A DNA stretch of 26,385 nucleotides from a virus (taxonomy: Duplodnaviria > Heunggongvirae > Uroviricota > Caudoviricetes). This document shows, one piece after another, positions 1-24,046 of the stretch (the stretch's first letter is position 1; each line of letters begins with the position of its first letter). Under the pieces are notes generated by a model. It was not told the DNA's origin, searched no databases, and was given only the letters and a program-made list of their open reading frames with translations. Both the position numbers and the translations under genes were made by a program. The stretch lies in IMG/VR virus record IMGVR_UViG_2909309443_000009. One strand, 5' to 3'.

Positions 1-753
1 TCAGATTCCCTGGTGAGTAAGAATTTTACTTTCTGAACTCCTCTGAGAGTATTGACTTGGAGAAACACCAAAATAACGTCTAAATACATAAGTAAAGTAT
101 GAGACACTGGCATAACCACAGACCTTAGCTACTTTACTAATAGGATAACAACGAGTGCTGAGTAAATATTCAGCCATTTGCATCCTCTCATCAAGTATGA
201 TCTTACTGAATGATACCCCCTCTTCTTTCAATTTCCTCTTTAGTAAACTTTCGCTGAGATATAATCTTGATGATATATCCTTAAGACGCCATGGTGCAGA
301 TAAATCCGTATGAATAATCGTTTTAACTTTAGCCCCTGTGCTTTTCAAACATCCAAACAGAAATACTCCAAATTGTTTTTCAGAAGAAAATGCAGAGAGA
401 CATGTAAAAGCAATAGACTCATCAAAAATTTCTATGTATTCAGCACAGTGATTAGCCCAACTAATTAATCCTTTAATTAAACTGAAGTCAGCAAAGTTTA
501 TTTTTAAATAAGATGGATATTCCCTACAATCAGAAATATCCCTTAAGTTATTAGCTTTCAAATAGCGACTAATAAACTCAGCGCCAAAATCCGCCACTAT
601 CACTCTTTCAGGATATGTCAGGAAAAAATCTCTAGAGCTAGAGTCGACAAGTACAGATGAACCTCTCTCCAGAAACACAATCTCTTTTCCTAAATAAACA
701 TCAAAGGACTCCAAAATCAATATAACTGAACATGTAGTTGCCATATCATCCAC
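1..753 (-). CDS. AraC/XylS-family transcriptional regulator (AT-rich, island-type)
   Basis: 250-aa ORF; C-terminal AraC-type HTH signature (KVAKVCGYASVSYFTYVFRRYFGVSPSQY); stop codon at window positions 1-3; markedly AT-rich codon usage. Confidence 0.7.
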   Translation of the reverse strand: MDDMATTCSVILILESFDVYLGKEIVFLERGSSVLVDSSSRDFFLTYPERVIVADFGAEFISRYLKANNLRDISDCREYPSYLKINFADFSLIKGLISWANHCAEYIEIFDESIAFTCLSAFSSEKQFGVFLFGCLKSTGAKVKTIIHTDLSAPWRLKDISSRLYLSESLLKRKLKEEGVSFSKIILDERMQMAEYLLSTRCYPISKVAKVCGYASVSYFTYVFRRYFGVSPSQYSQRSSESKILTHQGI

Positions 754-1328
754 CCAATTTAACTGAAACTAGGATGAAGTATATGCATATAAAGTTCACT
801 TTGCCAAACTTCAGTATAAAAAACCACATAAAAAATAGGGTGTGATAAAAAATACCGTAACAATAAAGCAAAGGATTATAAATTCCGTTACAGTTACAAA
901 TGATACTCAAGAAACAATTCCTTAGGAAAAACTTATTTACAGCCAATAAGTAAGACACTTATATGATATCAAGTTTTCATAAAACATAACTAGGCTAAAT
1001 AGCTTCGCCTAATACCGCTACACTTTTGCCAGCCCATGTTTGCCTCCGGGTATTGACCCCTTCTCTACGCAACTTCAGTTCCCACCACCAACTTTGCGGC
1101 AGCTTTGTAGGATCAATGTCTAAAAGAATAATGGTGACCGATAAGAAAACGACTGAATAACTGCAGATTTTCGCTCGAAACCTTCCTGTCAGATCCATAG
1201 CGAATCAAGTGCTGAATGTCACAGTATCGAACAGAAAACAGTGACGATCTAACCCTTCAAGAATATTCTACGATTGTTCTGTTTAGGAAAAGCAAGGCGG
1301 GAAGTCGGGAGATAAGTCATTGATAAAG

Positions 1329-1394
1329 TGGCGGAGAGAGGGGGATTTGAACCCCCGGTAGAGTTGCCCCTACTCCGGTTTTCGAGACCGGTCC
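1329..1394 (-). other. 3' fragment (about 66 nt) of a tRNA-Ser gene, anticodon CGA (serU-like); att-site remnant, not an intact tRNA
   Basis: Minus-strand sense reads GGACCGGTCTCGAAAACCGG (anticodon stem-loop, CGA) + long variable arm + T-arm GGGGGTTCAAATCCCCC + CTCTCCGCCA; the 5' acceptor/D-arm is absent and sequence diverges after 1394. Confidence 0.75.
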
Positions 1395-1475
1395 AATCAT
1401 AAAACGAAACATAAAATTAATTCACATTATGAGGAAAAAGTATCTTTTTTGTACTATGTAAATTCAAAGACTTAG

Positions 1476-2345
<870 letters not shown>

Positions 2346-2438
2346 GTCTTTAAGTGATAAGCATAAACCGCAGCACGATCTTGCATACGACGTGCTACGG
2401 TTTCATTTATCTCCGACTGGAAACTTCTTATACAAAGA

Positions 2439-2957
2439 CTATACGCCAACATCATAAATGATCGCCACCTTCTGGCGAGGAACTCCTGATGCAATTAATC
2501 GTCCGGCTTGTGCCCATTGTTCTGGTGTAAGTTTGGGACGACGTCCACCAATTCGTCCCTGTGCGCGAGCAGCTTCCAGTCCAGCTTTTGTTCGTTCAAC
2601 AATCAGTTCTCGTTCCATTTCAGCCAGGGCACCCATCACATGAAAGAAAAAACGCCCCATCGGCGTGCTGGTATCAATAGCATCCGTCAGGCTGCGAAAA
2701 TTAACGCCACGTTCGCGCAACTCCTCAACCAGAATGACCAGATGCCGCATACTACGCCCCAGCCGATCCAGCTTCCAGACAACCAGAGTGTCACCTGCCG
2801 ATAATGTCCTGAGCAGTTTTTTCAGTCCCAGCCTTTCGGACTTTGTACCGCTTATCTTGTCTTCAAAAATCAGCTCGCATCCTGCACAGTTCAGCGCATT
2901 ACGTTGTAGATCTGTGTTCTGGTCATTTGTTGACACACGTACATAGCCAATAAGCAT
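2439..2957 (-). CDS. pin: Pin/Gin/Hin-family serine DNA invertase, inverted second copy, C-terminally truncated (ends ...IIYDVGV)
   Basis: MLIGYVRVSTNDQ... resolvase/invertase catalytic domain; near-identical to 4835-5389 but lacks the last ~12 residues of the HTH; lies in a ~600-bp inverted repeat. Confidence 0.7.
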   Translation of the reverse strand: MLIGYVRVSTNDQNTDLQRNALNCAGCELIFEDKISGTKSERLGLKKLLRTLSAGDTLVVWKLDRLGRSMRHLVILVEELRERGVNFRSLTDAIDTSTPMGRFFFHVMGALAEMERELIVERTKAGLEAARAQGRIGGRRPKLTPEQWAQAGRLIASGVPRQKVAIIYDVGV

Positions 2958-2983
2958 GGTAGATCTCCCTGACAAAAGCAGGA

Positions 2984-3271
2984 ATGATGCCATTTGCTCG
3001 TTATTTCTGCATTTTCATAAATGTTGGTTTGGGAGAAGGTGCTCCAGCTATTGGCGTTCCGTTCTTCTGGCCGTCCGCTGCAATGCCAAATACTGTAATC
3101 GACAGCTGGTCCAGTATGGTGTTTTTGAAGTTCAACGGCGCGAAATTCTCTGCCACTGATTATCCTGTGCTGGCGAAAGTGTTTCCTTCGCTGGTATTAC
3201 CTGAAGCCCGCGGTGATTTCATTCGTATCTGGATGACGGGCGAGGTGCAGACGGTGGTCGCGAATTATTAA
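2984..3271 (+). CDS. Orphan tail-fibre C-terminal variable cassette (Sv-like) reading through the left crossover site
   Basis: ORF begins MMPFARYFCIFINVGLGEG across the crossover site, then a unique C-terminal cassette; no upstream constant tail-fibre region exists. Confidence 0.45.
   Translation: MMPFARYFCIFINVGLGEGAPAIGVPFFWPSAAMPNTVIDSWSSMVFLKFNGAKFSATDYPVLAKVFPSLVLPEARGDFIRIWMTGEVQTVVANY
3012..3037. repeat. pix/gix/hix-like 26-bp invertase crossover site (left)
   Basis: TTTTCATAAATGTTGGTTTGGGAGAA, reverse complement resembles hix/gix consensus TTnTCnAAACC..GGTTT..GAnAA; inverted partner at 4755-4780. Confidence 0.6.
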
Positions 3272-3479
3272 GCTGGCAGGCAGCTACAAACTTTTCTCAG
3301 TTTGCCGGGAATATAGGCGAAGGTGCGGGACACGCAATTAACTTTCATGATGGCATCGCCGGAAATCAGCCAGGATTTTCACGATTTAATTTCACCAGTA
3401 ACTCTGTGGGTGATGGTGTGAATTTTGTTGCTGTCAGACCGCGAAATATTGCATTTAACTTTCTGGTGAGGGCTAAATA

Positions 3480-4073
3480 ATGAAACCTGTTTTTGATGAA
3501 AATGGGCTGGCTACAGTGCCGGGCGATATGCGTTGTTTTTATTATGATGCTGAAACATCTGAGTATACGGGCTGGTCTGATGAATATATTAATACTGGCG
3601 TAAGTATGCCCGCCTGTTCCACTGGTATTGACCCTGGCGAAAACATTCCGGGAAGAGTGGCAGTATTTACAGGTAAGGGATGGCGCCATGAAGAAGACCA
3701 TCGCAATGAGACTGTTTACTTAATCGAAAATGGCGCAGCTGTTACAGTGGATTATATCGGTGCCATCAAAGACGGTTATGTCACGATTTCACCGTTAACG
3801 CCATACGATAAATGGGATGGTGAGAAATGGGTGACAGACACTGAGGCACAACACAGTGCCGCAGTAGACGCGGCAGAAGCACAGCGCCAGTCACTGATTG
3901 ATGCAGCAATGGCTTCCATTAGTCTGATTCAGCTGAAATTACAGGCCGGACGGAAACTGACTCAGGCAGAAACAACCCGACTTAACGCCGTGCTGGATTA
4001 CATTGACGCGGTGACGGCAACAGATACCAGCACCGCGCCGGATATCATCTGGCCTGAACTGCCGGAGGCGTAG
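3480..4073 (+). CDS. Tail fibre assembly protein (Tfa/U-like)
   Basis: 197-aa ORF with RBS GAGGG; Tfa-like N-terminus and C-terminal region; position directly after the tail-fibre cassette inside the invertible segment. Confidence 0.65.
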   Translation: MKPVFDENGLATVPGDMRCFYYDAETSEYTGWSDEYINTGVSMPACSTGIDPGENIPGRVAVFTGKGWRHEEDHRNETVYLIENGAAVTVDYIGAIKDGYVTISPLTPYDKWDGEKWVTDTEAQHSAAVDAAEAQRQSLIDAAMASISLIQLKLQAGRKLTQAETTRLNAVLDYIDAVTATDTSTAPDIIWPELPEA

Positions 4074-4259
4074 GCCATTCAATATCGGGTGCTGTTGACG
4101 TATCAACACGCATCAGCAGCACACGGTATTTCTTCCATTGGGTGAGAGTTGTAGCTTCTTCATCAGTTGCGATATCAGCATCAACAGCATCCTGACGCCA
4201 GGATATTTCACTGTCAGCTTTTTCCCGTAATTGGGATTTTTTAACTTCAGCAATAGCTA

Positions 4260-4472
4260 TTAATTCCTTTTGGTCGGCTGAGGAATATCTATCAGTGCTG
4301 GTTTTCCATTCAGTGTTCCAATCTGTTTTCCTGGTGGAATATCCATAAATAACTTCTTATGTTCTTCCTCACTGACTATTACACCATCATCAGGCCACAG
4401 ACCTGATGCCTCAAATTTTTCTTTCTCCGATATGGGGAAAAAGCCATTTGCTTTAGCGCTCCATACGTACAT
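4260..4472 (-). CDS. Tail fibre assembly protein, alternative copy, truncated (70 aa)
   Basis: Tfa-like N-terminus (MYVWSAKANGFFPI...) on the opposite strand, convergent with 3480-4073; premature stop suggests a decayed gene. Confidence 0.4.
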   Translation of the reverse strand: MYVWSAKANGFFPISEKEKFEASGLWPDDGVIVSEEEHKKLFMDIPPGKQIGTLNGKPALIDIPQPTKRN

Positions 4473-4487
4473 ATCAATACCCCACCG

Positions 4488-4808
4488 CTATAATGTCCAC
4501 ATTAAATCCCCGGGACCTGCCTGCCAGATGCTGGCCCCTGTTAATGATTTTGTTTGATGAACAACCGCCACATTTGCTGGCGATTGTGTTTCAGTTGTTA
4601 CAGTACCGATATCATTCCAGTTAATTGAGATGGAATAGTTCGTTGTTGTAAACGACCGGGGGAAAGTTATGTGTCTTACATTGGTGCCGACAGGAAATCC
4701 AAGATAAACACGCTGAATTATCATTCCTCCAGGTAACATAACCCAGTTAGCACCTTCTCCAAAACCAAGGTTTATGAAAATGCAGAAATAACGAGCAAAT
4801 GGCATCAT
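4488..4808 (-). CDS. Orphan alternative tail-fibre C-terminal cassette (Sv'-like) reading through the right crossover site
   Basis: Begins with the same MMPFARYFCIFIN junction peptide as 2984-3271, then a different C-terminal cassette. Confidence 0.45.
   Translation of the reverse strand: MMPFARYFCIFINLGFGEGANWVMLPGGMIIQRVYLGFPVGTNVRHITFPRSFTTTNYSISINWNDIGTVTTETQSPANVAVVHQTKSLTGASIWQAGPGDLMWTL
4755..4780. repeat. pix/gix/hix-like 26-bp invertase crossover site (right)
   Basis: TTCTCCAAAACCAAGGTTTATGAAAA; compare hixL TTCTTGAAAACCAAGGTTTTTGATAA; ~55 bp upstream of pin. Confidence 0.65.
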
Positions 4809-4834
4809 TCCTGCTTTTACCTGGGGGATCTACC

Positions 4835-5389
4835 ATGCTTATTGGCTATGTTCGCGTATCAACAAATGACCAGAACACCGATCTACAACGTAATGCGTTG
4901 AACTGTGTAGGATGTGAACTGATTTTTGAAGACAAGATAAGCGGTACGAAGTCCGAAAGACCGGGACTGAAAAAACTGCTCAGGACATTATCGGCAGGTG
5001 ACACTCTGGTGGTCTGGAAACTGGATCGGCTGGGGCGTAGTATGCGGCATCTGGTCATTCTGGTTGAGGAGTTGCGCGAACGTGGCGTTAATTTTCGCAG
5101 CCTGACGGATGCTATTGATACCAGCACACCGATGGGGCGTTTTTTCTTTCATGTGATGGGTGCCCTGGCTGAAATGGAACGAGAACTGATTGTTGAACGA
5201 ACAAAAGCTGGACTGGAAGCTGCTCGCGCACAGGGACGAATTGGGGGACGTCGTCCCAAACTTACACCAGAACAATGGGCGCAGGCCGGGCGATTAATTG
5301 CATCAGGCGTTCCTCGCCAGAAGGTGGCGATCATCTATGATGTTGGTATATCGACACTGTATAAGAAGTTTCCGGTCGGAGATAAATGA
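4835..5389 (+). CDS. pin: Pin/Gin/Hin-family serine DNA invertase (full length)
   Basis: 184 aa from MLIGYVRVSTNDQNTDLQRNAL...; complete C-terminal HTH (...VAIIYDVGISTLYKKFPVGDK); RBS GGGGGA upstream. Confidence 0.85.
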   Translation: MLIGYVRVSTNDQNTDLQRNALNCVGCELIFEDKISGTKSERPGLKKLLRTLSAGDTLVVWKLDRLGRSMRHLVILVEELRERGVNFRSLTDAIDTSTPMGRFFFHVMGALAEMERELIVERTKAGLEAARAQGRIGGRRPKLTPEQWAQAGRLIASGVPRQKVAIIYDVGISTLYKKFPVGDK

Positions 5390-5860
5390 AACCGTAGCAT
5401 GTCGTATGCAAGATTGTGCGCGGTTGGCTGGTGAACTTTCGATAGTGCGAGTATTGAATGATTTCCAGCCGTTATCGATTTTATGTATTTTTTGCATGAG
5501 AGGATTTCCATCACCTCCCACCGGCCATCTATGACTTTACGCCACTGTCCCTAGGACTACTATGTACTAGGAGCGGATGTTAAACTCAGACTCGTTTCAG
5601 CTACATTGCGTTTTGAATAATATTCCATCATAATAACTCTTTGAAAAATGTAACCTTTTCATTTATAACACTTATGACTTACTTATCTCATTGGGATATC
5701 GGAGGCGAATACTTAACTATGACAAGCCCGATTATTATGACGCTGGCGATATTATATAGATTGATATTAAAATGTAGGATTAGGTTCTTGCCAAGGTGTC
5801 AAGATTTACAGATAGGTTTAAAACCATATAAATATGTTTTACGGTGAGATGTAATAATTA

Positions 5861-5888
5861 TTGGAAAGCATAAACGCTTGGTAAAAAT
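5861..5888 (+). promoter_or_regulatory. Candidate sigma70 promoter for the large NTPase gene
   Basis: TTGGAA - 16 bp - TAAAAA about 25 bp upstream of the RBS GGGAGAAG; by-eye call only. Confidence 0.25.
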
Positions 5889-5911
5889 TTAATTGTTGGG
5901 AGAAGCTAATC

Positions 5912-8900
5912 ATGGAACCCATATCAATTACAGTGGCAACTTATGTAGCAACTAAACTTATTGATCAATTCATTTCTCAAGAAGGATATAGTTGGATTAA
6001 GAAAGCATTATTCCCCACAGAAAAATATGTGGATAGATTATATCAACTAATTGAAGAGACGGCAATTGAGTTTGAAGAAACATATCCAGTAGAAAGTGGA
6101 GCAATTCCATTTTATCATTCTAAACCATTGTTTGAGATGTTGAATGAGTACATCCTTTTTAAAGAGTTCCCTGACAAAGAGATGTTATTAGACAAGTTCA
6201 AAGAATATCCAAGCGTCACTCCCCCAACTCAACAACAACTCAGCCTTTTTTATGGGATGTTATCATTAAAAATCAATAATTGTTCGAAGTTAAAAAAGCT
6301 ACATATCGAAGAAACGTATAAAGAAAAAATATTCGATATTAATGAAGAGCTCATTCAAGTCAAACTTATTTTACGGTCTATAGATGAGAAACTAACTTTT
6401 CACTTAAGTGATGATTGGTTAAATGAAAAAAATAGTCAAGCAATAGCTGACTTGGGAGGTCGATACACACCCGAACTCAACGTAAAGCTAGAAATAGCAG
6501 AGATATTTGATGGCCTCGGTAGAACTAATGATTTTTCTAAAATATTTTATTCGCATATAGATAGCTTTCTGGTCGCTGGAAAGAAATTACATAGTTGCGA
6601 TGTAATTTCCTCAGAATTATTTGAAATAAACCAGTCCTTAAAAGAAATTTCTGATATATATCAGGAGATTAATTTTTCTAAATTAGATGAAATCCCTATA
6701 AATAAATTTAATAACTATGTTTCTAGCTGCCAGACAGCTATTGGCGGAGCGGTATCAATATTGTGGGAACTCCGAGAAAAGTCAGAGCAAGTAGGTGAAA
6801 CCAAGCATTACAGTGATAAGTATTCATCTACTCTGCGAATGCTTCGGGAATTTGACTATGCGTGCAATGAATTACGTATATTCATTAATTCAACAACAGT
6901 GAAGTTGGCTAACAACCCATTCTTACTTCTCGAAGGAAAAGCAGGAATTGGTAAGTCTCATTTACTGGCTGATGTGATTAAAAATCGAATTGCTTCTGGG
7001 TATCCTTCACTACTCATACTAGGGCAACAACTTACTTCAGATGAATCTCCATGGTCACAAATCTTCAAGAGATTACAGCTTAAAATCACTTCTCGTGAAT
7101 TCCTAGAAAAACTGAATTTATATGGCAAAAAAACAGGAAAAAGAGTCTTAGTTTTTATTGATGCTATTAATGAAGGTAATGGAAATAAATTCTGGAATGA
7201 CAATATTAACAGTTTTGTCGATGAAATCAGATGCTTTGAATGGCTTGGTCTGATAATGTCAGTCAGAACAACATATAGAAATGTAACAATTTCACATGAG
7301 AATGTTGTGCGAAATAATTTTGAAATTCATGAACATATTGGATTCCAGAACGTTGAGTTGGAAGCGGTTAGTCTATTTTATGATTATTACAATATTGAGA
7401 GGCCTTCATCTCCTAACCTTAATCCAGAGTTTAAAAATCCTCTATTTCTTAAGTTATTGTGTGAAGGCATTAAGAAAAATGGTTTAACCAAAGTGCCTGT
7501 TGGATTTAATGGGATTTCAAATATTTTTAACTTTTTAGTTGAAGGGGTAAATAAATCATTAGCATCGCCAAAAAAATATGCATTCGATCCCAGTTTTCCT
7601 CTTGTTAAAGATGCTCTCAATGAAATCATAAAATTCAAATTAGAGATTGGTCGTAATAGTATTTCACTTAAAGATGCTCACTCAGTGGTTCAATCTGTAG
7701 TTAATGATTATGTTGCTGATAAAACCTTCCTCAGCGCCTTGATTGACGAAGGATTATTGACTAAAGGCATAGTGAGAAATGATGATAATTCTACTGAGGA
7801 AGTAGTTTATGTGGCTTTTGAAAGGTTTGATGATCATTTAACTGTTAATTTTTTATTAAATGATGTTGAAAATATCGAAAGTGAATTTAAGCCTGATGGT
7901 CGTCTGAAAAAATATTTTCATGATGAATGTGATTTTTATATAAAATCGGGAATAGTAGAGGCGTTGTCTATTCAATTGCCAGAAAGGTATGAAAAAGAGC
8001 TTTATGAATTTCTGCCGGAGTTCAGCAATAATCTTAAATTACTAGAAGCCTTTATTGATAGCTTGATATGGCGCGATATTAAGGCTATTTATTTCGAAAA
8101 AATTAGACCTTTCATCAATGAACATGTTTTTAAATTTAAAGATAGTTTTGATCATTTCCTCGAGGCAGTGATCTCTATTTCAGGTTTAGTTGGCCATCCC
8201 TTTAATGCTAATTTCTTGCATGATTGGCTAAAAGATTATTCTTTGGCAAATCGAGATTCGTTTTGGACTACAGAACTTAAATATAAATATAGTGAAGACT
8301 CAGCATTTAGGCATCTAATCGATTGGGCATGGGCCAGAACAGATAAAAGCTTTGTTTCGGATGAGTCAATCGAGCTAGTTGCAACTAGTTTATGCTGGTT
8401 TTTAACTTCTAGTAACCGAGAACTTCGAGATTGCTCAACTAAGGCTTTAGTGAGTTTACTCGAGCCAAGAATTCCTGTATTGAGAAAAATAATTGATAAG
8501 TTTTATGGTGTAAATGATCCTTACGTTTGGGAAAGAATATTTGCAGTTGCATTAGGCTGTACATTGCGAACTGATAATATTAAAGAACTAAAATATTTAG
8601 CCGAAACTGTTTACCAAAAGGTATTTTGTTCTAAGTATGTGTATCCAAATATATTACTTAGAGATTATGCTAGAGAGATTATTGAATTTGCTAATCATCT
8701 TGGATTGGAACTTGAAAGCATTGAATTATCCAAGACTAGACCACCCTACAACAGCATTTGGCCTGACAAGATTCCTTCAAAAGAGGAACTAGAGTCCCTT
8801 TATGATAAAGAACCTTATCGGGAACTCTGGAGCTCTATTATGGAAGATGGTGACTTTTCACGATATACTATTGGAACAAATTATAATCATTCTGATTGGT

Positions 8901-10366
8901 CTGGTTGCAAGTTTAATGAAACCCCTGTTGACCGTAAGCAAGTTTTTAAAACTTTCAAATGTAAACTAACTGATCAACAAAAAGACTTGTATGATGCCAC
9001 AGATCCTTTCATTTATGATGATAAATGCGAAGGAATTAAATTTGGTCGTGTGGTCGGTAGAAAAGCACAGGAAGAAATAAAGGCGAGCAAGAAATTATTT
9101 AAGAATTCATTGTCATACGATCTGTTAAGTGAGTTTGAAAATGAAATAGAGCCATACCTGGATCATAATAATAATCTGCTGGAAACTGATAAACACTTTG
9201 ATCTTCGACTAGCTCAACAATTTATATTCAATCGTGTTATAGAGCTTGGTTGGGATCCGGAGAAGCATGGTAATTTTGACCAACAAATAGGAACTGGACG
9301 TGGACGTAGAGAGGCATTCCAAGAACGGATTGGTAAAAAATACCAATGGATTGCTTATTATGAATACATGGCAAGGCTAGCCGATAATTTTACTCGTTTT
9401 GAAGGTTATGGTGACGAACGAAAGGAAAATCCATACCAAGGGCCATGGGAGCCTTACGTAAGAGATATAGATCCCACTATCTTACTTAAAGAAACTGGAA
9501 CGAAAAAAATAAGCAATAAAGAAATGTGGTGGCTTAATGATGAAGTGTTTGATTGGACTTGCTCTAATGAAGACTGGGTTAAAAGTTCTACTACTATAAC
9601 TAATTCATATGCTTTTATTGAAGTTAAAGATGATAATGGTGATGAATGGATAGTATTAGAAAGTCATCCATCATGGAAAGAACCAAAAATTATTGGAAAC
9701 GATGATTGGGGGCACCCACGAAAAGAGGTTTGGTATCAGATCAGAAGTTATATCGTTAAAGTTGAAGAATTTGAAAATTTTAGATGTTGGGCAATAGCTC
9801 AAGACTTTATGGGCAGGTGGATGCCGGAATGTACTGATAGATACCAATTATTTAATAGGGAGTACTATTGGTCCGAAGCATTTAAGTCTTTTAAATCAGA
9901 TTATTATGGTGGATCTGACTGGACTTCGGTAACAGACCGGGAGTCTGGAGCTAAGATAGCTGATGTTAGTGTCACTTCGATTAATTATTTGTGGGAAGAG
10001 GAGTTCGACAAATCAAAAATAGAAACTTTGAATTTTTTGAAGCCTAGTAACTTAATCTTTGAAAAGATGGGATTAAAAAGTGGGGAAGTAGAGGGTAGCT
10101 TCAATGATGAAAATGGAACTATGGTTTGCTTTGCAGCTGAAGCTGTATATGCTTCAAAGCCGCATCTACTTGTTAAAAAAGAACCATTTTTAACAATGTT
10201 AAGGGACAATGGTTTTGAAATCGTTTGGACATTATTAGGTGAAAAGGGCGTTATAGGGGGCTCACTCATATCAAGTCATCATTATGGTCGACAGGAGTTT
10301 AGTGGAGCATTTTATTATGAAGACAGTCAGCTAACAGGAAGTCATAAAACTAGCTTTACGAGATAA
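5912..10366 (+). CDS. Large (1484 aa) STAND/NACHT-like P-loop NTPase with uncharacterised N- and C-terminal modules; candidate antiphage defence protein
   Basis: Uninterrupted ORF with strong RBS; Walker A GKAGIGKS (nt 6935-6958), Walker B VLVFIDAINE (~7145-7177), sensor-1-like LIMSVRT; AT-rich; sits between pin and an att core. Confidence 0.8.
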   Translation: MEPISITVATYVATKLIDQFISQEGYSWIKKALFPTEKYVDRLYQLIEETAIEFEETYPVESGAIPFYHSKPLFEMLNEYILFKEFPDKEMLLDKFKEYPSVTPPTQQQLSLFYGMLSLKINNCSKLKKLHIEETYKEKIFDINEELIQVKLILRSIDEKLTFHLSDDWLNEKNSQAIADLGGRYTPELNVKLEIAEIFDGLGRTNDFSKIFYSHIDSFLVAGKKLHSCDVISSELFEINQSLKEISDIYQEINFSKLDEIPINKFNNYVSSCQTAIGGAVSILWELREKSEQVGETKHYSDKYSSTLRMLREFDYACNELRIFINSTTVKLANNPFLLLEGKAGIGKSHLLADVIKNRIASGYPSLLILGQQLTSDESPWSQIFKRLQLKITSREFLEKLNLYGKKTGKRVLVFIDAINEGNGNKFWNDNINSFVDEIRCFEWLGLIMSVRTTYRNVTISHENVVRNNFEIHEHIGFQNVELEAVSLFYDYYNIERPSSPNLNPEFKNPLFLKLLCEGIKKNGLTKVPVGFNGISNIFNFLVEGVNKSLASPKKYAFDPSFPLVKDALNEIIKFKLEIGRNSISLKDAHSVVQSVVNDYVADKTFLSALIDEGLLTKGIVRNDDNSTEEVVYVAFERFDDHLTVNFLLNDVENIESEFKPDGRLKKYFHDECDFYIKSGIVEALSIQLPERYEKELYEFLPEFSNNLKLLEAFIDSLIWRDIKAIYFEKIRPFINEHVFKFKDSFDHFLEAVISISGLVGHPFNANFLHDWLKDYSLANRDSFWTTELKYKYSEDSAFRHLIDWAWARTDKSFVSDESIELVATSLCWFLTSSNRELRDCSTKALVSLLEPRIPVLRKIIDKFYGVNDPYVWERIFAVALGCTLRTDNIKELKYLAETVYQKVFCSKYVYPNILLRDYAREIIEFANHLGLELESIELSKTRPPYNSIWPDKIPSKEELESLYDKEPYRELWSSIMEDGDFSRYTIGTNYNHSDWSGCKFNETPVDRKQVFKTFKCKLTDQQKDLYDATDPFIYDDKCEGIKFGRVVGRKAQEEIKASKKLFKNSLSYDLLSEFENEIEPYLDHNNNLLETDKHFDLRLAQQFIFNRVIELGWDPEKHGNFDQQIGTGRGRREAFQERIGKKYQWIAYYEYMARLADNFTRFEGYGDERKENPYQGPWEPYVRDIDPTILLKETGTKKISNKEMWWLNDEVFDWTCSNEDWVKSSTTITNSYAFIEVKDDNGDEWIVLESHPSWKEPKIIGNDDWGHPRKEVWYQIRSYIVKVEEFENFRCWAIAQDFMGRWMPECTDRYQLFNREYYWSEAFKSFKSDYYGGSDWTSVTDRESGAKIADVSVTSINYLWEEEFDKSKIETLNFLKPSNLIFEKMGLKSGEVEGSFNDENGTMVCFAAEAVYASKPHLLVKKEPFLTMLRDNGFEIVWTLLGEKGVIGGSLISSHHYGRQEFSGAFYYEDSQLTGSHKTSFTR

Positions 10367-10749: not shown

Positions 10750-10795
10750 ATTCGTAATGCGAAGGTCGTAGGTTCGACTCCTATTATCGGCACCA
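10750..10795 (+). other. 3' 46-nt fragment of tRNA-Thr (thrW-like, anticodon CGU): att core, not an intact tRNA
   Basis: ATTCGTAATGCGAAGGTCGTAGGTTCGACTCCTATTATCGGCACCA; upstream sequence is not tRNA-like. Confidence 0.75.
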
Positions 10796-10809: not shown

Positions 10810-11587
10810 TTACCTCACATTTAAGTAAACTACGTTCTCCTCTTGTGCCGTATTTGTGCCATTGCGACTTATAATCGCATCGATTTTGCTCGCGTGCTCG
10901 GTGAGATGCCCGGCTGAAAGGTGGGCGTATCTTTGAACCATTTCGAGAGTTTCCCATCCTCCCATCTCTTTAAGTGCAAGAAGAGAGACACCGGACTGAA
11001 CCAGCCAGCTTGCCCAGGTATGCCTCAGATCATGGAAGCGGAAGTTGCTAATGCCTGCCCGCTTTAACGCTCCCTTCCATGCCTTGTTGCTGTCGGTTCT
11101 CATTTTCCTTACCGCTGCTGTTTTTGTTCCGTCGCTTCGGTAGGCAGGTTTGGTGTGGACAAATACCCATCTCTTATGGAGCCCCTGCTGTTTTCTTAAT
11201 ATCTGGCATGCGGTTTCGTTAAGAGGAACTCCAATCGCATTGCCAGCTTTTGTTTCATCAGGGTGCATCCATGCCATTTTCTTATCCAGATCGACCTGTG
11301 ACCACTCAAGGTCTGTAACGTTGGAACGGCGAAGGCCTGTCGTGATTGCAAACATGACCACAGGGAAGAAGTGAGGAGCAATTTCTGCAAACAGGCGCTT
11401 CGATTCCTCCTCTGTAAGCCATCTGATTCGTCCATTCTTAACGCGTGGTGTTGATATTTTGGGCGCCCTGTCAAGCCATCCCCATTCAACAGCCATATTG
11501 AGAATAGCGCGAAGTATTGCCAGATGCCGCGTCTTCGTTCCTTTGCTTGCCAGCTTTGGTTTATACTCCGGCACTGGCTTGCCAAGC
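10810..11587 (-). pseudogene. int: Tyrosine integrase, C-terminal ~255 codons, separated from its upstream part by IS66 insertion
   Basis: Catalytic motifs [13 protein letters not shown] and RYAHL present; aligns to residues ~130-387 of the intact integrase at 22883-24046; reading frame continues through the target duplication into the IS. Confidence 0.75.
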
Positions 11588-11617
11588 GTAAGCGACTCGT
11601 CAGAACCGTATTGATAT

Positions 11618-13189
11618 TTACTGAGAGCTCAGATCAACTTTCCAGGGCAACAGATCGCGTACCCGGTTTGCCGGCCAGTCCTGGATATGTTCAATGACGT
11701 AACGCAGCCACTTTTCTGACTCCACATTGTTCAGACGGCATGTGCCGATCAGCGAGTACAACACCGCCGCATGTTCACCACCGCTGTCGGAACCCGCGAA
11801 CATCCAGTTTTTCCGGCCTACGGCCACTCCCCGTAAGGCGTTCTCTGCGATGTTGTTGTCGATTTCCACCCAGCCATTACTGCAGTACACGTTCAGTGCA
11901 TCCCACTGTTTCAGCAGGTATGCGAACGCTTTTGCCGTATCTGAGTGACGCGACAGTGTTTTCATCTGTTGCTGTATCCAGTCATACAGTGACTGCATCA
12001 GTGGCGCGGCTCTGGCTTTTCTTGCCGCCAGACGCTGTTCTGCTGAACAGCCCCGGACCTCTGCCTCGATGGCATACAGTTCACCGATACGCTGCAGGGC
12101 TTCCGTGGTGATGTAGGTGGGCGCTCTTGCATGCACATCGTGGATTTTTCTCCGGACATGAGCCATACACGCGGCTTCCGTTATTCTGCCGGATTCGTAT
12201 AACGCCCGGTAACCACCGTAAGCATCGGCCTGAAGCACACCGCTGTAACCGGCCAGGTGATTTTGTGGATGGATACCTTTCCGGTCCGGACTGTACGCGA
12301 ACCAGACCGCCGGGGGCATCTGTGAACCGGCGTTACGGTCATCACGGACGTAGACCCACAGCCGGGCTGTCCGGGTTTTACCGCTGCCCGGCTCCTGGAC
12401 CGGGACGGGGATATCATCAGCATGGACTTTACCGGGCATCAGCACATACTGGCGCAGGACGTCATACAGCGGCTCCAGCAGTTCAGCAACAGCACCTGTC
12501 CAGCGCCCCAGTGTGGCACGGCTCAGCTCCACGCCCTGACGACGGTATATTTCTGACTGGCGGTATAACGGCAGATGGTCTGCATATTTCCCGGTGACAA
12601 CATGGGCCAGAAGCCCCGCTCCGGCATAACTGCGTGCAATGGGTTTTGAAGGTACTGGTGCCTGCACGATATGGTCGCACCGGCAACAGGCCTGTTTCGG
12701 ACGTTGTGTTTCGATAACCTTAAAGGCGCTGCTGATAAGCTCCAGTTGCTCTGACACATCACATCCCAGAGAACTGAGTTCACCACCACAGGCAGGACAG
12801 CATTCCTCTTCCGGCCGGATAACCCGGGTTTCACGGGGAAGTGAGGCCGGTAACGGTTTACGGGCTGAAGACTGGCGCAGGGGGGATGGCAGTACCGGGT
12901 CATATTGCTCACCCAGCGTTTCTGCCATTTCTTCCTGAAGTGCGCTGATTCGCTCCTGTGCTTCCTGTATCTGCCGTTCGGTTTTTGCGCGAAGTTTTTC
13001 TGAGCTTTTACCGAACTGCATACGTTGCAGTTTCGCAACCAGCGCCTTCAGCCGGTTGATTTCGGAAGCATAAGCCGCCACCCGCTGTGAGAGCAGGCGG
13101 TTGTATTCAGCCATCTGGCGTATGGTGTCCTGTTGCGTCTGCAACAGTGCCCGCAGGCGGGCGTTCTCATGAGCAAGTGAGGTGTCCAT
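11618..13189 (-). CDS. tnpC: IS66-family transposase TnpC
   Basis: 523-aa ORF with N-terminal coiled-coil/leucine-zipper-like region and Cys-rich segment typical of IS66 TnpC. Confidence 0.8.
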
Positions 13190-13208
13190 ATCCTCACTTT
13201 ACAACGGG

Positions 13209-13556
13209 TTATATGCGGATTCCAGCGCGTTCCGTTCGTTTCGGGTGCTTCCAGTTGATACCTTCAAGAAGCATGGATAACTGAGCCGGAGTAAGGTGCA
13301 CCTTGCCGTCACGGGTGACTGGCCAGACGAAGCGGCCCCGCTCCAGGCGTTTGGTGAAGAGGCACAGTCCGTCACTGTCAGCCCACAACACTTTTATCTG
13401 GTCACCCCGGCGTCCGCGGAAGATGAACAGGTGTCCGGAGAACGGGTCATCCTTCAGGACGTTCTGAACTTTTGATGCCAGGCCGTTAAAGCCATTTCGC
13501 ATATCGGTGATACCTGCAACCAGCCAGATACGCGAACCTGCAGGGAGAGATATCAT
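13209..13556 (-). CDS. tnpB: IS66-family accessory protein TnpB (Orf2)
   Basis: 115-aa ORF MISLPAGSRIWLVAGITDMRNGFNGL... immediately upstream of tnpC. Confidence 0.75.
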   Translation of the reverse strand: MISLPAGSRIWLVAGITDMRNGFNGLASKVQNVLKDDPFSGHLFIFRGRRGDQIKVLWADSDGLCLFTKRLERGRFVWPVTRDGKVHLTPAQLSMLLEGINWKHPKRTERAGIRI

Positions 13557-13680
13557 CAGTGGCTGCTCCCTTTTATTTCGCGGATAAGTGTCTGTAATAA
13601 CGCCGGCGTCAGTTTACCTTTAAGCCTGAGAGTTCCGGCCGGCAGAACCAGCTCACAACACAGACTGTCGGACGGTGTAT

Positions 13681-14232
13681 TTATCTGCTCTGGTTCCTGT
13701 GCGGGGCCGGGATTTTATTATCCGGCTCCGGCGTTAACGTCACGGGAAGCAGTGCCGGCATATTTTTTCCGGAAGGCAGCAGGCCACCTTTCCGGTATTG
13801 ATGGCGCCAGTTGAAGAGCAGGTTATCGTTGATTCCGTTTTCCCGGGCGATCTGCGCCACACAGGCTCCGGGCTGCAGTGACTGCTCCACTAAGGCGATT
13901 TTAAACTCATAAGGGAAGTTGGGCCGCCGGGGACGTTTTTTTACCACGGGGGCTTCGGATATAACGGTGCTTTCAGGACGTACGACTGGTATCGTGGAAA
14001 ATTGTCCGTAAAGGCAGGCATCAAGTTCCTGCTCCGACATGCCTGCGGGCAAAGGCCACGAAAGGCCAGCTCTCCGAAAGCGCACGAACATACTACAAAC
14101 TGTTGATTTTGGTACACCCAGGCGACGCCCGGCCACAACCCGGGGTAAATGTTCTTCAAAGTGAAGACGTAAAGCTTCAGTGATCCAGGTCCGGTGTTTC
14201 ATACGATAGTGTCCATTAAAAATGATGGACAT
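13681..14232 (-). CDS. tnpA: IS66-family accessory protein TnpA (Orf1), HTH-containing; N-terminal extent uncertain
   Basis: C-terminal part RPRRPNFPYEFKIALVEQSLQPGACVAQIARENGINDNLLFNWRHQYR is a transposase-type HTH; 124-bp gap before tnpB is atypical. Confidence 0.55.
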   Translation of the reverse strand: MSIIFNGHYRMKHRTWITEALRLHFEEHLPRVVAGRRLGVPKSTVCSMFVRFRRAGLSWPLPAGMSEQELDACLYGQFSTIPVVRPESTVISEAPVVKKRPRRPNFPYEFKIALVEQSLQPGACVAQIARENGINDNLLFNWRHQYRKGGLLPSGKNMPALLPVTLTPEPDNKIPAPHRNQSR

Positions 14233-14353
14233 TATTTTTGTAGAGCCGGAGGAAACAGACCAGACGGTTTAAATGAGCCGGTTACTGCCAAGCCGCAAAC
14301 ACCTGTCCCGGCTCATTTCCCAGTTCAGGCGATGGCGGCGGTTTTCCATCCCG

Positions 14354-14563
14354 TCTATCCGGAGGAAACAACACGATCTCCACTGAAGCAGGTGCCGACG
14401 TTGGTTTCGGCAGACGACGTAACTGCTCAACTATTGCTGCGCACGCCGCGCTCTGGAATTTTCGCCCCGCCGCGCTTATCAGGCTCTTACCAGCAAACGC
14501 CCCTTTGTTGGGGTGTCGCCAGTACGTGTTCACGCTGGGCGGAAAAGGCAGGATCAGCTTCAT
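14354..14563 (-). pseudogene. RusA-like Holliday-junction resolvase, N-terminal ~70 codons only, fused to an integrase fragment
   Basis: MKLILPFPPSVNTYWRH...VEIVLFPPDRR resembles the RusA N-terminus; homology stops near 14350, where another frame (14294-14350) encodes MENRRHRLNWEMSRDRCLRLGKPV matching the integrase. Confidence 0.55.
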
Positions 14564-14886
14564 ACTTTCAGGTCCCTCTCATGTAACCAGTGGGTTGCAC
14601 GCAGCCTTGCGTTTTCCTCACCGGCAAGCAGTGCGCGGATAATCCCGACCGCCTCGCTGTCGTCGTCCTTCACCGCGGTATGAAGCGTTATCCCCCGGGC
14701 CACGCCACGCTTTATCGTGATGACGCCTTTTTTCTCCAGTGCGCGAAGATGCTCCACCGCTGCATTCACCGAACGGTATCCCAGCATGGTTGCCACCTCC
14801 TGATTGGTTGGCGGGAAGCCACGTTCTTTCTGATAAGAAATCAGCATATCCAGCACCTGCTGCTGGCATTGAGTTAACGTCGTCAT
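14560..14886 (-). CDS. LexA-like winged-helix DNA-binding protein lacking the S24 peptidase domain
   Basis: QQQVLDMLISYQKERGFPPTNQEVATMLGYRSVNAAVEHLRALEKKGVI closely parallels the LexA N-terminal DNA-binding domain; 108 aa total; 4-nt overlap with upstream gene. Confidence 0.6.
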   Translation of the reverse strand: MTTLTQCQQQVLDMLISYQKERGFPPTNQEVATMLGYRSVNAAVEHLRALEKKGVITIKRGVARGITLHTAVKDDDSEAVGIIRALLAGEENARLRATHWLHERDLKV

Positions 14887-15536
14887 GCCGCCATCTCCCT
14901 GACCAGTTTTTCCGCCTGCTGGCGAACCTGCGCCAGAAACGCCTCACCACATGCCTCAAGTTCATCGCGCCCGATGTAGCTGATTGCCGGTCCCTTCCAG
15001 GTCTTGTCAAAAACAGCAATAGCACCAGCGAAAAAAGCTCCTGTCGGTACCTGCTTCTCGTCTTTCGGGATAAACCAGACAGGCAGTTCAAAACCAATAC
15101 GCCCGCGAATAAAAGCAATATGATCTGCATCTTCCGGCCACCACACTTCGCTGGTGGCAGCTTTGATCAGGAAAACATAGCGCCCGCCCTTATCACGCAT
15201 GGCACTGGCATGTTTCATGATGTAACGCATGCCGGTGATGTATTGCCCCTCATGCTGACTGGCGCGGCTGTATGGGGGATTACCAAAGGCAGCACCTTTA
15301 AGCTCCGCAAGACGTTCTGACCAGTCATGCGCCAGCGCGTTGTCTTCCGCCGTGTAATACGCGGCACATTTGGCGTTATCACCGTCAGTGAACAGATCCA
15401 GAACAAACGGGCCAAACAGGGTGTTAATTCCCCAGAAAATGTTGTCCGGCGTGCGCCACTGATCGCCCACTTCCTTCAGTTCATGGGCTGGTTTGTTCCG
15501 CAGTTCCACCAGCGCCTGGCAATATTTATTACTCAT
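14883..15536 (-). CDS. Phage-type DNA N6-adenine methyltransferase
   Basis: NPPY catalytic motif (AAFGNPPYSRA); start ATG at 15534-15536 overlaps the upstream stop (translational coupling). Confidence 0.7.
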   Translation of the reverse strand: MSNKYCQALVELRNKPAHELKEVGDQWRTPDNIFWGINTLFGPFVLDLFTDGDNAKCAAYYTAEDNALAHDWSERLAELKGAAFGNPPYSRASQHEGQYITGMRYIMKHASAMRDKGGRYVFLIKAATSEVWWPEDADHIAFIRGRIGFELPVWFIPKDEKQVPTGAFFAGAIAVFDKTWKGPAISYIGRDELEACGEAFLAQVRQQAEKLVREMAA

Positions 15537-16030
15537 TAAGCCCCCACGTAATTCCCTGACAGATACCACTCTTCACCCGATGCAGCGCGCTTGCTGCTTT
15601 TCCGTAAGCACCGCTCACGACGCGTCAGAAAATTGTTTCGTTCTGGCTGGGAGTGGCTTTCACGGAATGCCGCCATCCACACGGTTGCAGCACGACGGTA
15701 TAAGCCCCTGGACTCCAGTTCTTCCGCCTGGCGGGTCAGGCACAAAATCACACGGGGATCGTTAGTGCCGACATAGAAATTGCGCACAGGTCTGGTTTCA
15801 CGAACTGGTTGTGGTTCCGGTTCCTGCGCTCTCTCAGTCAGGCGCGGGAAATGTCTGCGTGTATCTCCTTCACAACGGTGAGCCACACGCCCACTCTGAC
15901 GTAACTTGCTTGCTGACTGCAGAACGCGCTGCCGTGAGTAACCGGCAAAAGCATCCGCAATATCTCCGGAAGTACAGCCCGGATGGGCTTCAATGAATTT
16001 CTGAACGTCATTCAAAAGACTCATGCTCAC
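15536..16030 (-). CDS. Prophage regulatory protein with PerC-like C-terminal motif
   Basis: AEELESRGLYRRAATVWMAAF resembles the PerC/Pch signature; N-terminal winged-helix-like region; ATGA overlap with O-like gene. Confidence 0.4.
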   Translation of the reverse strand: MSMSLLNDVQKFIEAHPGCTSGDIADAFAGYSRQRVLQSASKLRQSGRVAHRCEGDTRRHFPRLTERAQEPEPQPVRETRPVRNFYVGTNDPRVILCLTRQAEELESRGLYRRAATVWMAAFRESHSQPERNNFLTRRERCLRKSSKRAASGEEWYLSGNYVGA

Positions 16031-16968
16031 CCCCTGAATCCTGCCGGGATCTGGCTGTAGTCCACGTTGTCGTAACTGGCTTTGAAGTACGGGTCTTCGC
16101 GTTTTTCGGTGTACGTGCTGACGGACGGCGATAAGCGCAGGGAAAGCTCATCCCATTTTTCCCGCAGCTTCGACGGGCTGAGCACGTTACGGCACCAGAA
16201 CGGATCGCGACTGACGCGGCTGTACATCTCGCAGATTTGTTTATGAGTACGACCATCCTGCACACACATCAGGCGAATTTCGTTTGCCCAGGCTGTCCAG
16301 TTCGGTTCTTTGGGACGAACCACCTCGCCGTCACATTCGGCGGCCTGCTCGTACAGGGCGATGATTTTTTTCCAGAGCCACTGTGCGCAGGTCAAATCAT
16401 CCTGCGTTCCCCACTGGCGCTTTTTAGGGCTGAATACAACCGCATCAGGATGGCGAGTTAAAAACTCCTGTTCAGCCGTCTGCGTGTCCGGTTGCGAAGC
16501 GTCCGGACGAGAAGTTTTTTTATCTGACGGATCATGTTTTGATTTTACTGACGGATCCCCGCCAGATTCTGACGGGTGAAAACCCGCTTTTTTGCCAGAT
16601 TTCGACGCATCAAATTTTGACGGGTCAGATTTTGATGCGTCAGATTTTGACGGGTCAGAATCTGACAGTTGAGAAAATGCCGCTGCCTGAAGCTTCGCAA
16701 CGTTAAGCTGATAAACATTCGACGCATTGCGGTTACCCTGGCGACGCGCCTTACGCGTTAACCAGCCTTCTGCTTCCAGCCGTGCGATAGCCGTTCTGAC
16801 GGTACTCATCCCCGCGCCAATCTGACGGGCAATGGTTTCAATTGATGGCCAGCACACACCTTCGTCATTACTGAAATCAGCCAGGCGGGCCATAATTGCC
16901 ACGCTGGATAATTTCATGCCTGACGCTGCGCAACCATCCCATACATAGCCGGTTAATTTAGTGCTCAT
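16027..16968 (-). CDS. Lambdoid replication initiator (O-like) with internal origin iterons
   Basis: N-terminal HTH (MSTVRTAIARLEAEGWLTRK); central low-complexity SDSDPSKSDASKSDPSKFDASKS encoded by tandem DNA repeats; position after the CII-like gene. Confidence 0.65.
   Translation of the reverse strand: MSTKLTGYVWDGCAASGMKLSSVAIMARLADFSNDEGVCWPSIETIARQIGAGMSTVRTAIARLEAEGWLTRKARRQGNRNASNVYQLNVAKLQAAAFSQLSDSDPSKSDASKSDPSKFDASKSGKKAGFHPSESGGDPSVKSKHDPSDKKTSRPDASQPDTQTAEQEFLTRHPDAVVFSPKKRQWGTQDDLTCAQWLWKKIIALYEQAAECDGEVVRPKEPNWTAWANEIRLMCVQDGRTHKQICEMYSRVSRDPFWCRNVLSPSKLREKWDELSLRLSPSVSTYTEKREDPYFKASYDNVDYSQIPAGFRG
16524..16668. repeat. Iteron array (about 8 tandem ~15-bp repeats, GATTTTGACGGGTCA / GATTTTGATGCGTCA) inside the O-like gene: putative prophage replication origin
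   Basis: Direct repeats read in sequence at 16524-16668. Confidence 0.6.
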
Positions 16969-22656: not shown

Positions 22657-23006
22657 TGGAGCCATACAGCCTCACACTCGATGAGGCCTGTCATTTTCTC
22701 AAGATATCCAGACCGACTGCCATTAACTGGATACGCACAGGGCGTCTTCAGGCAACACGCAAAGATCCCACTAAGAATAAATCTCCTTACCTCACAACAC
22801 GACAAGCCTGCATTGCGGCTCTTCAGTCTCCGCTGCATACTGTCCAGGTGAGCGCGGGTGATGGCATAACAGAGGAAAGAAAATGTCACTCTTCCGCAGA
22901 GGTGAAATATGGTACGCCAGTTTCACATTGCCGAACGGTAAAAGATTTAAACAGTCTCTTGGAACAAAGGACAAAAGGCAGGCGACAGAACTCCATGACA
23001 AGCTAA
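22656..23006 (+). CDS. xis: Excisionase (AlpA/Xis-type HTH); 3' extent uncertain
   Basis: [36 protein letters not shown] typical of excisionases; RBS GAGGTG; in-frame ORF runs to 23006, overlapping the int start at 22883. Confidence 0.5.
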
Positions 23007-24046
23007 AGGCTGAAGCATGGCGGGTCAGCAAACTTGGTGAAATACCTGATATAACGTTCGAGGAAGCGTGTGTCAGGTGGCTTGAAGAGAAAGCACATAA
23101 AAAATCACTGGACGATGACAAAAGCCGGATCGGATTCTGGCTTCAACATTTCGCAGGAATGCAACTAAGAGACATTACTGAATCAAAAATTTATTCAGCA
23201 ATGCAGAAAATGACGAACCGGCGTCATGAGGAAAACTGGAAACTCAGGGCAGAAGCATGCAGAAAAAAAGGGAAACCTGTTCCAGAATACACGCCAAAAC
23301 CAGCGTCCGTTGCAACGAAGGCTACGCATCTTTCATTTATAAAGGCCCTACTAAGAGCCGCAGAGCGTGAATGGAAAATGCTGGATAAGGCACCAATTAT
23401 TAAAGTGCCTCAACCAAAGAATAAACGGATCCGCTGGCTGGAGCCCCATGAAGCACAAAGGCTGATTGATGAATGTCCGGAGCCATTAAAGTCTGTTGTT
23501 GAATTTGCACTGGCAACAGGCTTAAGACGCTCGAACATCATCAACCTTGAATGGCAACAAATAGATATGCAGCGCCGGGTGGCATGGATAAACCCGGAAG
23601 AGAGTAAATCAAACCGCGCAATCGGCGTTGCGCTGAATGATACTGCATGTCGCGTTTTGAAAAAACAAATCGGGAATCATCACCGTTGGGTATTTGTGTA
23701 CAAGGAAAGCTGTACCAAACCAGACGGAACGAAAGCGCCAACAGTAAGGAAGATGCGGTATGACGCAAACACAGCCTGGAAAGCAGCGCTGAGACGGGCT
23801 GGTATTGATGATTTCAGATTTCACGACTTGAGACACACCTGGGCAAGTTGGCTGGTTCAAGCCGGAGTCCCGTTGTCAGTGTTACAGGAAATGGGAGGCT
23901 GGGAGTCTATCGAAATGGTTCGTCGATATGCTCACCTTGCACCTAATCACCTTACCGAACACGCACGGCAAATAGACTCGATCCTGAACCCATCGGTCCC
24001 AAATTCGTCCCAGTCAAAAAATAAGGAAGGTACTAATGATGTGTAA
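22883..24046 (+). CDS. int: Lambdoid tyrosine integrase (intact)
   Basis: 387 aa; RBS AGGAAAG; catalytic R...HxxR...Y motifs ([24 protein letters not shown]); ends 14 bp before the att core. Confidence 0.9.

Follow-up and report, generated by a model that had tools for sequence, protein, structure and literature searches.

An ISCro1-like IS66-family element with an 8-bp target-site duplication lies within a truncated prophage integrase gene

The locus described here lies in a window of 26,385 nt, which is the whole stretch of DNA that was analysed, and brings together an integrase remnant, a fragment of rusA and an IS66-family insertion sequence (Table 1). Its surroundings are those of a CPS-53/KpLE1-like prophage remnant with yfdN-yfdT, a phage Dam methylase gene and a gene for a LexA-like regulator, and this remnant has an intact 387-aa integrase of its own at 22883-24046. 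To the left of the locus are the anti-phage gene Avs2 (5912-10366) and, in a tail-fibre segment, two genes for the invertase pinE. ARAGORN found no complete tRNA in the window; all that is present is the 3' fragment of a tRNA-Thr that makes up the att core. The contiguous arrangement of Avs2, att core and integrase was not found in phage genomes, which match only the integrase arm and the att core, from 10750 rightwards. Taken as a whole, this is a mosaic graveyard of prophages adjoining an Avs2 defence gene.

Table 1. Features of the locus in window coordinates
Feature	Position	Strand	Supporting evidence
tRNA-Thr 3' 46 nt, thrW-type att core, just past the integrase stop codon	10750-10795	+	Exact end point of the homology with E. 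coli HS and phage attP regions
Integrase remnant, distal part (about HS residues 127-384, complete catalytic domain)	10810-11587	-	Pfam Phage_integrase (PF00589), E 4.6e-35
Target-site duplication, left copy, TGCCAAGC	11580-11587		Single copy at the FDAARGOS_1077 empty site (L002)
ISCro1-like IS66-family insertion sequence, 2698 bp (usual length 2699 bp)	11588-14285	genes on -	Full-length copies in numerous E. coli are 99.9% identical
Terminal inverted repeat, tnpC end, GTAAGCGACTCGTCAGAACCGTATTG	11588-11613		18 of 26 positions equal to the other end
tnpC, DDE transposase, 523 aa, intact	11618-13189	-	Pfam DDE_Tnp_IS66 (PF03050), E 1.5e-103
tnpB, IS66 accessory protein, 115 aa, intact	13209-13556	-	Pfam TnpB_IS66 (PF05717), E 4.7e-40
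tnpA, frameshifted	13556-14232 (open frame 13681-14232)	-	HTH_Tnp_1 domain
Terminal inverted repeat, tnpA end, reverse complement GTAACCGGCTCATTTAAACCGTCTGG	14260-14285		
Target-site duplication, right copy, TGCCAAGC	14286-14293		
Integrase remnant, proximal part (HS residues about 105/106-126), separated from the rest by the IS	14294-14357	-	
rusA 5' fragment, codons 1-69 of 129	14357-14563	-	99% nucleotide identity to intact rusA (L010)

The element carries three consecutive minus-strand ORFs, tnpA, tnpB and tnpC, in the layout of the IS66 family. In addition to the IS66-type DDE domain, TnpC has zinc-finger and leucine-zipper regions, with matches to zf-IS66, LZ_Tnp_IS66 and DDE_Tnp_IS66_C (PF13005, PF13007, PF13817) that all lie above the gathering scores. 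The TnpC of another copy of the element (L004) is identical to it, and that of a copy labelled ISCro1 agrees at 520 of 523 residues. TnpB is of the IS66 Orf2 type and agrees at 115 of 115 residues with the protein of a copy from E. coli O26. Copies that PGAP labels "IS66-like element ISCro1 family" (2699 bp) have 99.3-99.6% nucleotide identity to the window element. By contrast, copies labelled as ISEc8 family, which share its family and gene layout, reach only ~71% identity, and this over query positions 243-1110, within tnpC (about a third of the element). The likeness to ISEc8 suggested in the preliminary description is therefore not upheld, and the element is best classed as ISCro1-like within the IS66 family, with the PGAP-labelled copies serving as a proxy for the ISfinder reference, to which an element of that name should by ISfinder convention have at least ~95% nucleotide identity. 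It resembles ISCro1 in its tnpA-tnpB-tnpC layout and in its ends, but differs from the ISCro1-family copies in being 1 bp shorter and in having a frameshifted tnpA. IS679 and IS66, the founding and experimentally studied members of the family, are different elements that likewise have three ORFs. ISCro1 was named from Citrobacter rodentium ICC168, where it expanded to 24 copies (PMC3072379). Its length in strain EC958 is given as 2,824 bp (PMC8764528), as against 2699 bp for the copies compared here.

The gene that the element interrupts is related to the 384-aa prophage integrase at thrW in E. coli HS. When the IS and one copy of TGCCAAGC were removed in silico and the product was re-translated, the integrase frame was open across the restored junction (...DRCLRLGKPVPEYKPKLASKG..., aligned to approximately residues 120-140 of the intact HS protein), and the restored sequence (...DGMENRRHRLNWEMSRDRCLRLGKPVPEYKPKLASKG...) differed from the HS integrase by one amino acid over residues 106-384. 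The preliminary description had followed the integrase frame across the duplication, and comparison with the HS protein agrees with this. The break that it had placed after "KPV" lies instead within codons L127-G128-K129, the V being no more than the GTG with which the downstream ORF begins. The distal part of the remnant has 98.8% nucleotide identity to the HS gene and covers positions 2-170 of the 172 in the Phage_integrase profile, and a further 23 integrase codons lie beyond the IS. Homology to the HS gene starts only at ~14357-14361, which corresponds to HS residue 105/106, and residues 1-105 of the 384, including the start, are missing from the window. The same limit holds for hundreds of other genomes, whose matches in a search with the restored sequence go no further than query position 468. 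PGAP annotates the integrase gene as partial both with and without the IS. Among thrW-targeting integrases (CP4-6-type att), those of the lambdoid phages HK75, mEpX2, HK542, mEp213 and SfX have 98.6-99.1% nucleotide identity to the window over the att core and the 3' portion of the gene. Compared with these integrases and that of E. coli HS, the window remnant lacks the first ~105 codons, has rusA joined to it in another frame and is interrupted by the IS.

On the far side of this joint, homology to rusA ends at 14356, after codon 69. The C-terminal 60 residues of RusA are lost, and PGAP labels the product "missing C-terminus". The rusA and integrase frames differ at the joint (~14356-14361), where 2-5 bases of microhomology are present. 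The intact relative of this gene encodes a 129-aa protein from a CPS-53/KpLE1-like prophage that matches Pfam RusA (PF05866). Pfam searches with the 93-aa and 69-aa rusA fragments gave no match, and a full-length RusA domain was not found in them.

Each end of the element abuts a copy of the 8-mer TGCCAAGC, which the preliminary description had taken to be a perfect target duplication. The 8-mer occurs exactly twice in the window, at these two positions, and the identity between the flanks stops at eight bases, the ninth being different. The element starts with GTAAGCGACTCG... and finishes with ...GAGCCGGTTAC, so that the reverse complement of its end reads GTAACCGGCTCA.... Its terminal inverted repeats are imperfect, with GTAAGCG... 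at one end and GTAACCG... at the other, and the agreement between their first 26 positions has a binomial P of ~2.6e-6. The terminal inverted repeats of the IS66 family have the consensus start GTAAGCG, and those of IS679 and IS66 begin in this way.

That an 8-mer should occur twice in 26 kb is nothing unusual by itself, and in 29 of 100 shuffles at least two occurrences were found; the copies of TGCCAAGC could on that count match by chance, with the real ends of the element lying elsewhere. What matters, however, is their position, and identity of two fixed 8-mers has a chance probability of 4^-8 (~1.5e-5). Moreover, seven independent insertions (L004-L009, L012) have the same end bases as the window copy and are each flanked by a perfect 8-bp duplication of their own (TTTTGAGG, CCTTTGAA, GTCTAATC, AGAACATG, CCTTTATC, TTTTGAAC and GCTAGACA). 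These copies occupy unrelated sites on an ETEC chromosome, an ETEC plasmid, three replicons of E24377A, another plasmid and the chromosome of O26:H11 11368. No target-site consensus was evident among the eight duplications. In O26-type ISCro1 copies, homology seemed to reach 17-28 bp beyond the left end of the IS, but this was an artefact of BLAST, which had extended the alignment with gaps into flanks of loose similarity; on inspection of these flanks, the left end of the O26 copy was the same as in the window and GCTAGACA was its own duplication. An 8-bp duplication thus accompanies the element at eight independent sites, the window site included, and is of the length reported for IS66 (PMC6778807). 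Finally, the sequence from which the IS and one TGCCAAGC copy had been removed is 100% identical over 800 bp to a locus in E. coli FDAARGOS_1077, where the site is naturally unoccupied and TGCCAAGC is present once. Because seven other insertions share these ends and have 8-bp repeats of their own, and because an exact empty site exists, the ends are the true ends of the element and the TGCCAAGC repeats are a genuine target-site duplication; the probability of a chance match is negligible. Together with the protein domains, the shared ends also confirm that the element belongs to the IS66 family and retains both of its ends.

The preliminary description had further stated that the IS splits an integrase gene and thereby inactivated it. 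The IS does physically divide the integrase reading frame, and a frame that is open across the restored junction, with 23 integrase codons beyond the IS, is what one would expect if the element had entered an intact, functional gene. However, the sequence upstream of ~14357 is rusA in another frame, and only residues 106-384 of the 384 are present in the window. In addition, the IS-free genome FDAARGOS_1077 has the same junction, and its integrase gene is truncated in the same way and carries a pseudogene annotation, with an 843-bp integrase ("incomplete; missing N-terminus") beside a RusA that lacks its C-terminus. The target was already a pseudogene, and it is very unlikely that the insertion inactivated a functional integrase. 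An equally unlikely alternative is that the IS came first, that the rusA/integrase junction formed later and that the empty site in FDAARGOS_1077 resulted from precise excision of the IS. Such an order would accommodate the finding of the junction in one IS-free genome as against 17 with the IS. It would also sit with the further rearrangement of FDAARGOS_1077, which is set apart by an inversion and by an insertion of IS100 and for that reason is a relative and not a direct ancestor. Yet it needs a rare precise excision that left exactly one copy of the repeat. Furthermore, ~68 bp separate the junction from the IS, whose target duplication is undamaged, which means that the junction did not come from a deletion at the edge of the IS. 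Because the IS-free genome carries the same rusA/integrase junction, we infer that the junction formed first and the IS arrived second, the most parsimonious order, as read from the single IS-free genome FDAARGOS_1077.

The best explanation, in which we have high confidence, is accordingly that an ISCro1-type IS transposed into an already decayed integrase remnant. Illegitimate recombination or deletion would first have joined codon 69 of rusA, from a CPS-53/KpLE1-like prophage, to codon ~105 of a foreign thrW-type integrase gene. With different frames at the joint, both rusA and the integrase would have been dead before the IS arrived. The 2.7-kb ISCro1-type IS66-family element would then have transposed into the prophage remnant, 68 bp downstream of the junction. 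Cuts staggered by 8 bp at TGCCAAGC and the subsequent repair of the gaps would have produced the flanking direct repeats, and the insertion would have been without functional consequence for the integrase. At a later time, the window copy would have lost one G of five in tnpA, leaving TnpA truncated and uncoupled from the tnpB start codon that it normally overlaps.

The element had been called complete, a description that fits both ends, tnpB and tnpC but not tnpA, which is frameshifted by a 1-bp deletion. Relative to three other copies (L001, L004 and L006), one G is absent from a five-G run at 13703-13706. The predicted TnpA consists of 177 native residues followed by six foreign residues and a stop, giving 183 aa as against 225 aa in the reference copies. 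In those copies the tnpA stop and the tnpB start overlap by 1 nt (TGATG), whereas in the window copy tnpA translation stops ~125 nt short of the start of tnpB. Strain E8 carries at this locus a copy with all five Gs, in which tnpA is intact. The four-G allele is present in 26 of ~2085 records, sporadically and at unrelated sites, a distribution that fits recurrent homopolymer slippage or sequencing error. Since it falls in a homopolymer, the 1-bp deletion in the window could itself be a sequencing error. The related IS679 reportedly needs all three ORFs for transposition. Because TnpA is truncated and all three ORFs are said to be required in this relative, the window copy, provided that the missing G is real, is probably non-autonomous and immobile unless complemented in trans. 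There is a slight chance that the five-G run in ISCro1 tnpA acts as a slippage-prone, reversible on/off switch of element activity. If so, the four-G allele seen here and in the 26 unrelated records would reflect recurrent, reversible inactivation and not sequencing noise.

In E. coli and on the plasmids of enterobacteria, few IS66-family insertion sequences are as common as this one. Full-length matches were found in 1,493 of 5,426 complete E. coli genomes, many of them at 99.9% identity, and on 1,399 plasmids from Escherichia, Shigella, Salmonella, Klebsiella and other genera. Many near-identical copies occupy different sites, and those that were examined each have their own duplication, which is an indirect sign of transposition. 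As an ordinary, widespread element in a dead gene, the insertion was already known and carries little biological weight. What is useful are the corrections, namely that the integrase was already a pseudogene, that the locus is mosaic and that this copy of the IS is probably not self-mobile. The insertion marks a single clonal lineage of ETEC, and in combination with the rusA/integrase junction it could be used as a marker of that lineage. The same exact insertion is present, and already annotated, in 17 complete RefSeq ETEC genomes, and its carriers include TW10598, B2C, FORC_031, an O6:H16 strain and human isolates with "E" names (E8, E54 and others).

The junction between rusA and the remnant of the thrW-type integrase split by the ISCro1-like IS66-family element has microhomology of 2-5 bases and is illegitimate. 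It is common to 18 genomes, of which 17 carry the IS and one lacks it. This junction marks the fusion of two different prophages, an event that deleted the CPS-53-like phage's late region. Further to the right lies a second, intact integrase that is presumably the resident prophage's own and that underlines the foreign origin of the IS-split remnant.

Features of the window and of sister genomes
Feature	Position	Strand	Details
Inverted-repeat pair	window 2366-3043 and 4749-5425		678 bp each, 94.5% identical
Avs2 ORF	window 5912-10366	+	1484 aa; PGAP annotation in identical loci
Inverted block	window 1-8070 vs L002 (FDAARGOS_1077) 8073-1		boundary near window 10623/10624
tRNA-Thr 3' 46 nt, thrW-type att core	window 10750-10795	+	homology ends at 10750
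rusA codon 69 / integrase codon ~105 junction	window 14356-14361		out of frame
Tyrosine integrase, intact	window 22883-24046	+	387 aa; Pfam Phage_integrase, E 3e-48
IS100	L002 (FDAARGOS_1077) 11441-13242		interrupts helix-turn-helix (HTH)-domain gene adjoining yfdN
ISEc62-family IS21-like element	L011 (O6:H16 strain) 14683-16649		adjoins frameshifted hypothetical gene

The att core lies 15 bp past the integrase stop codon, and position 10750 is the exact limit of homology both to E. coli HS, a reference with an intact integrase at thrW, and to the attP regions of phages HK75, mEpX2 and SfX. Because homology stops there, the Avs2 side corresponds neither to the thrW chromosomal flank nor to the other arm of HK75, mEpX2 or SfX. 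The integrase remnant and the att core lie directly to the right of the Avs2 ORF, which at identical loci is labelled by PGAP as 'AVAST type 2 anti-phage system protein Avs2' and which in Pfam matched only nSTAND6, weakly (E 0.0022). On the far side of this ORF, the 678-bp inverted repeats bracket tail-fibre and tail-fibre-assembly genes and each overlaps one of two pinE invertase genes, an arrangement resembling an invertible host-range segment that is double or has been duplicated.

In E. coli FDAARGOS_1077, where the IS site is empty, the block comprising AraC, pinE, the tail-fibre genes and Avs2 is in the opposite orientation to that in the window, and its left endpoint lies beyond the window. 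A gene remnant for an 'integrase core domain' protein adjoins the integrase remnant in this genome. In two sister genomes, FDAARGOS_1077 and the O6:H16 strain, the same prophage remnant has gathered further insertion sequences. This region is a sink for IS elements.

The tnpA allele of the window's IS, with four Gs (13703-13706) in place of the five in reference copies, was also found in 26 other E. coli records, from unrelated strains and at unrelated insertion sites. This recurrence may reflect either real slippage or homopolymer sequencing error.
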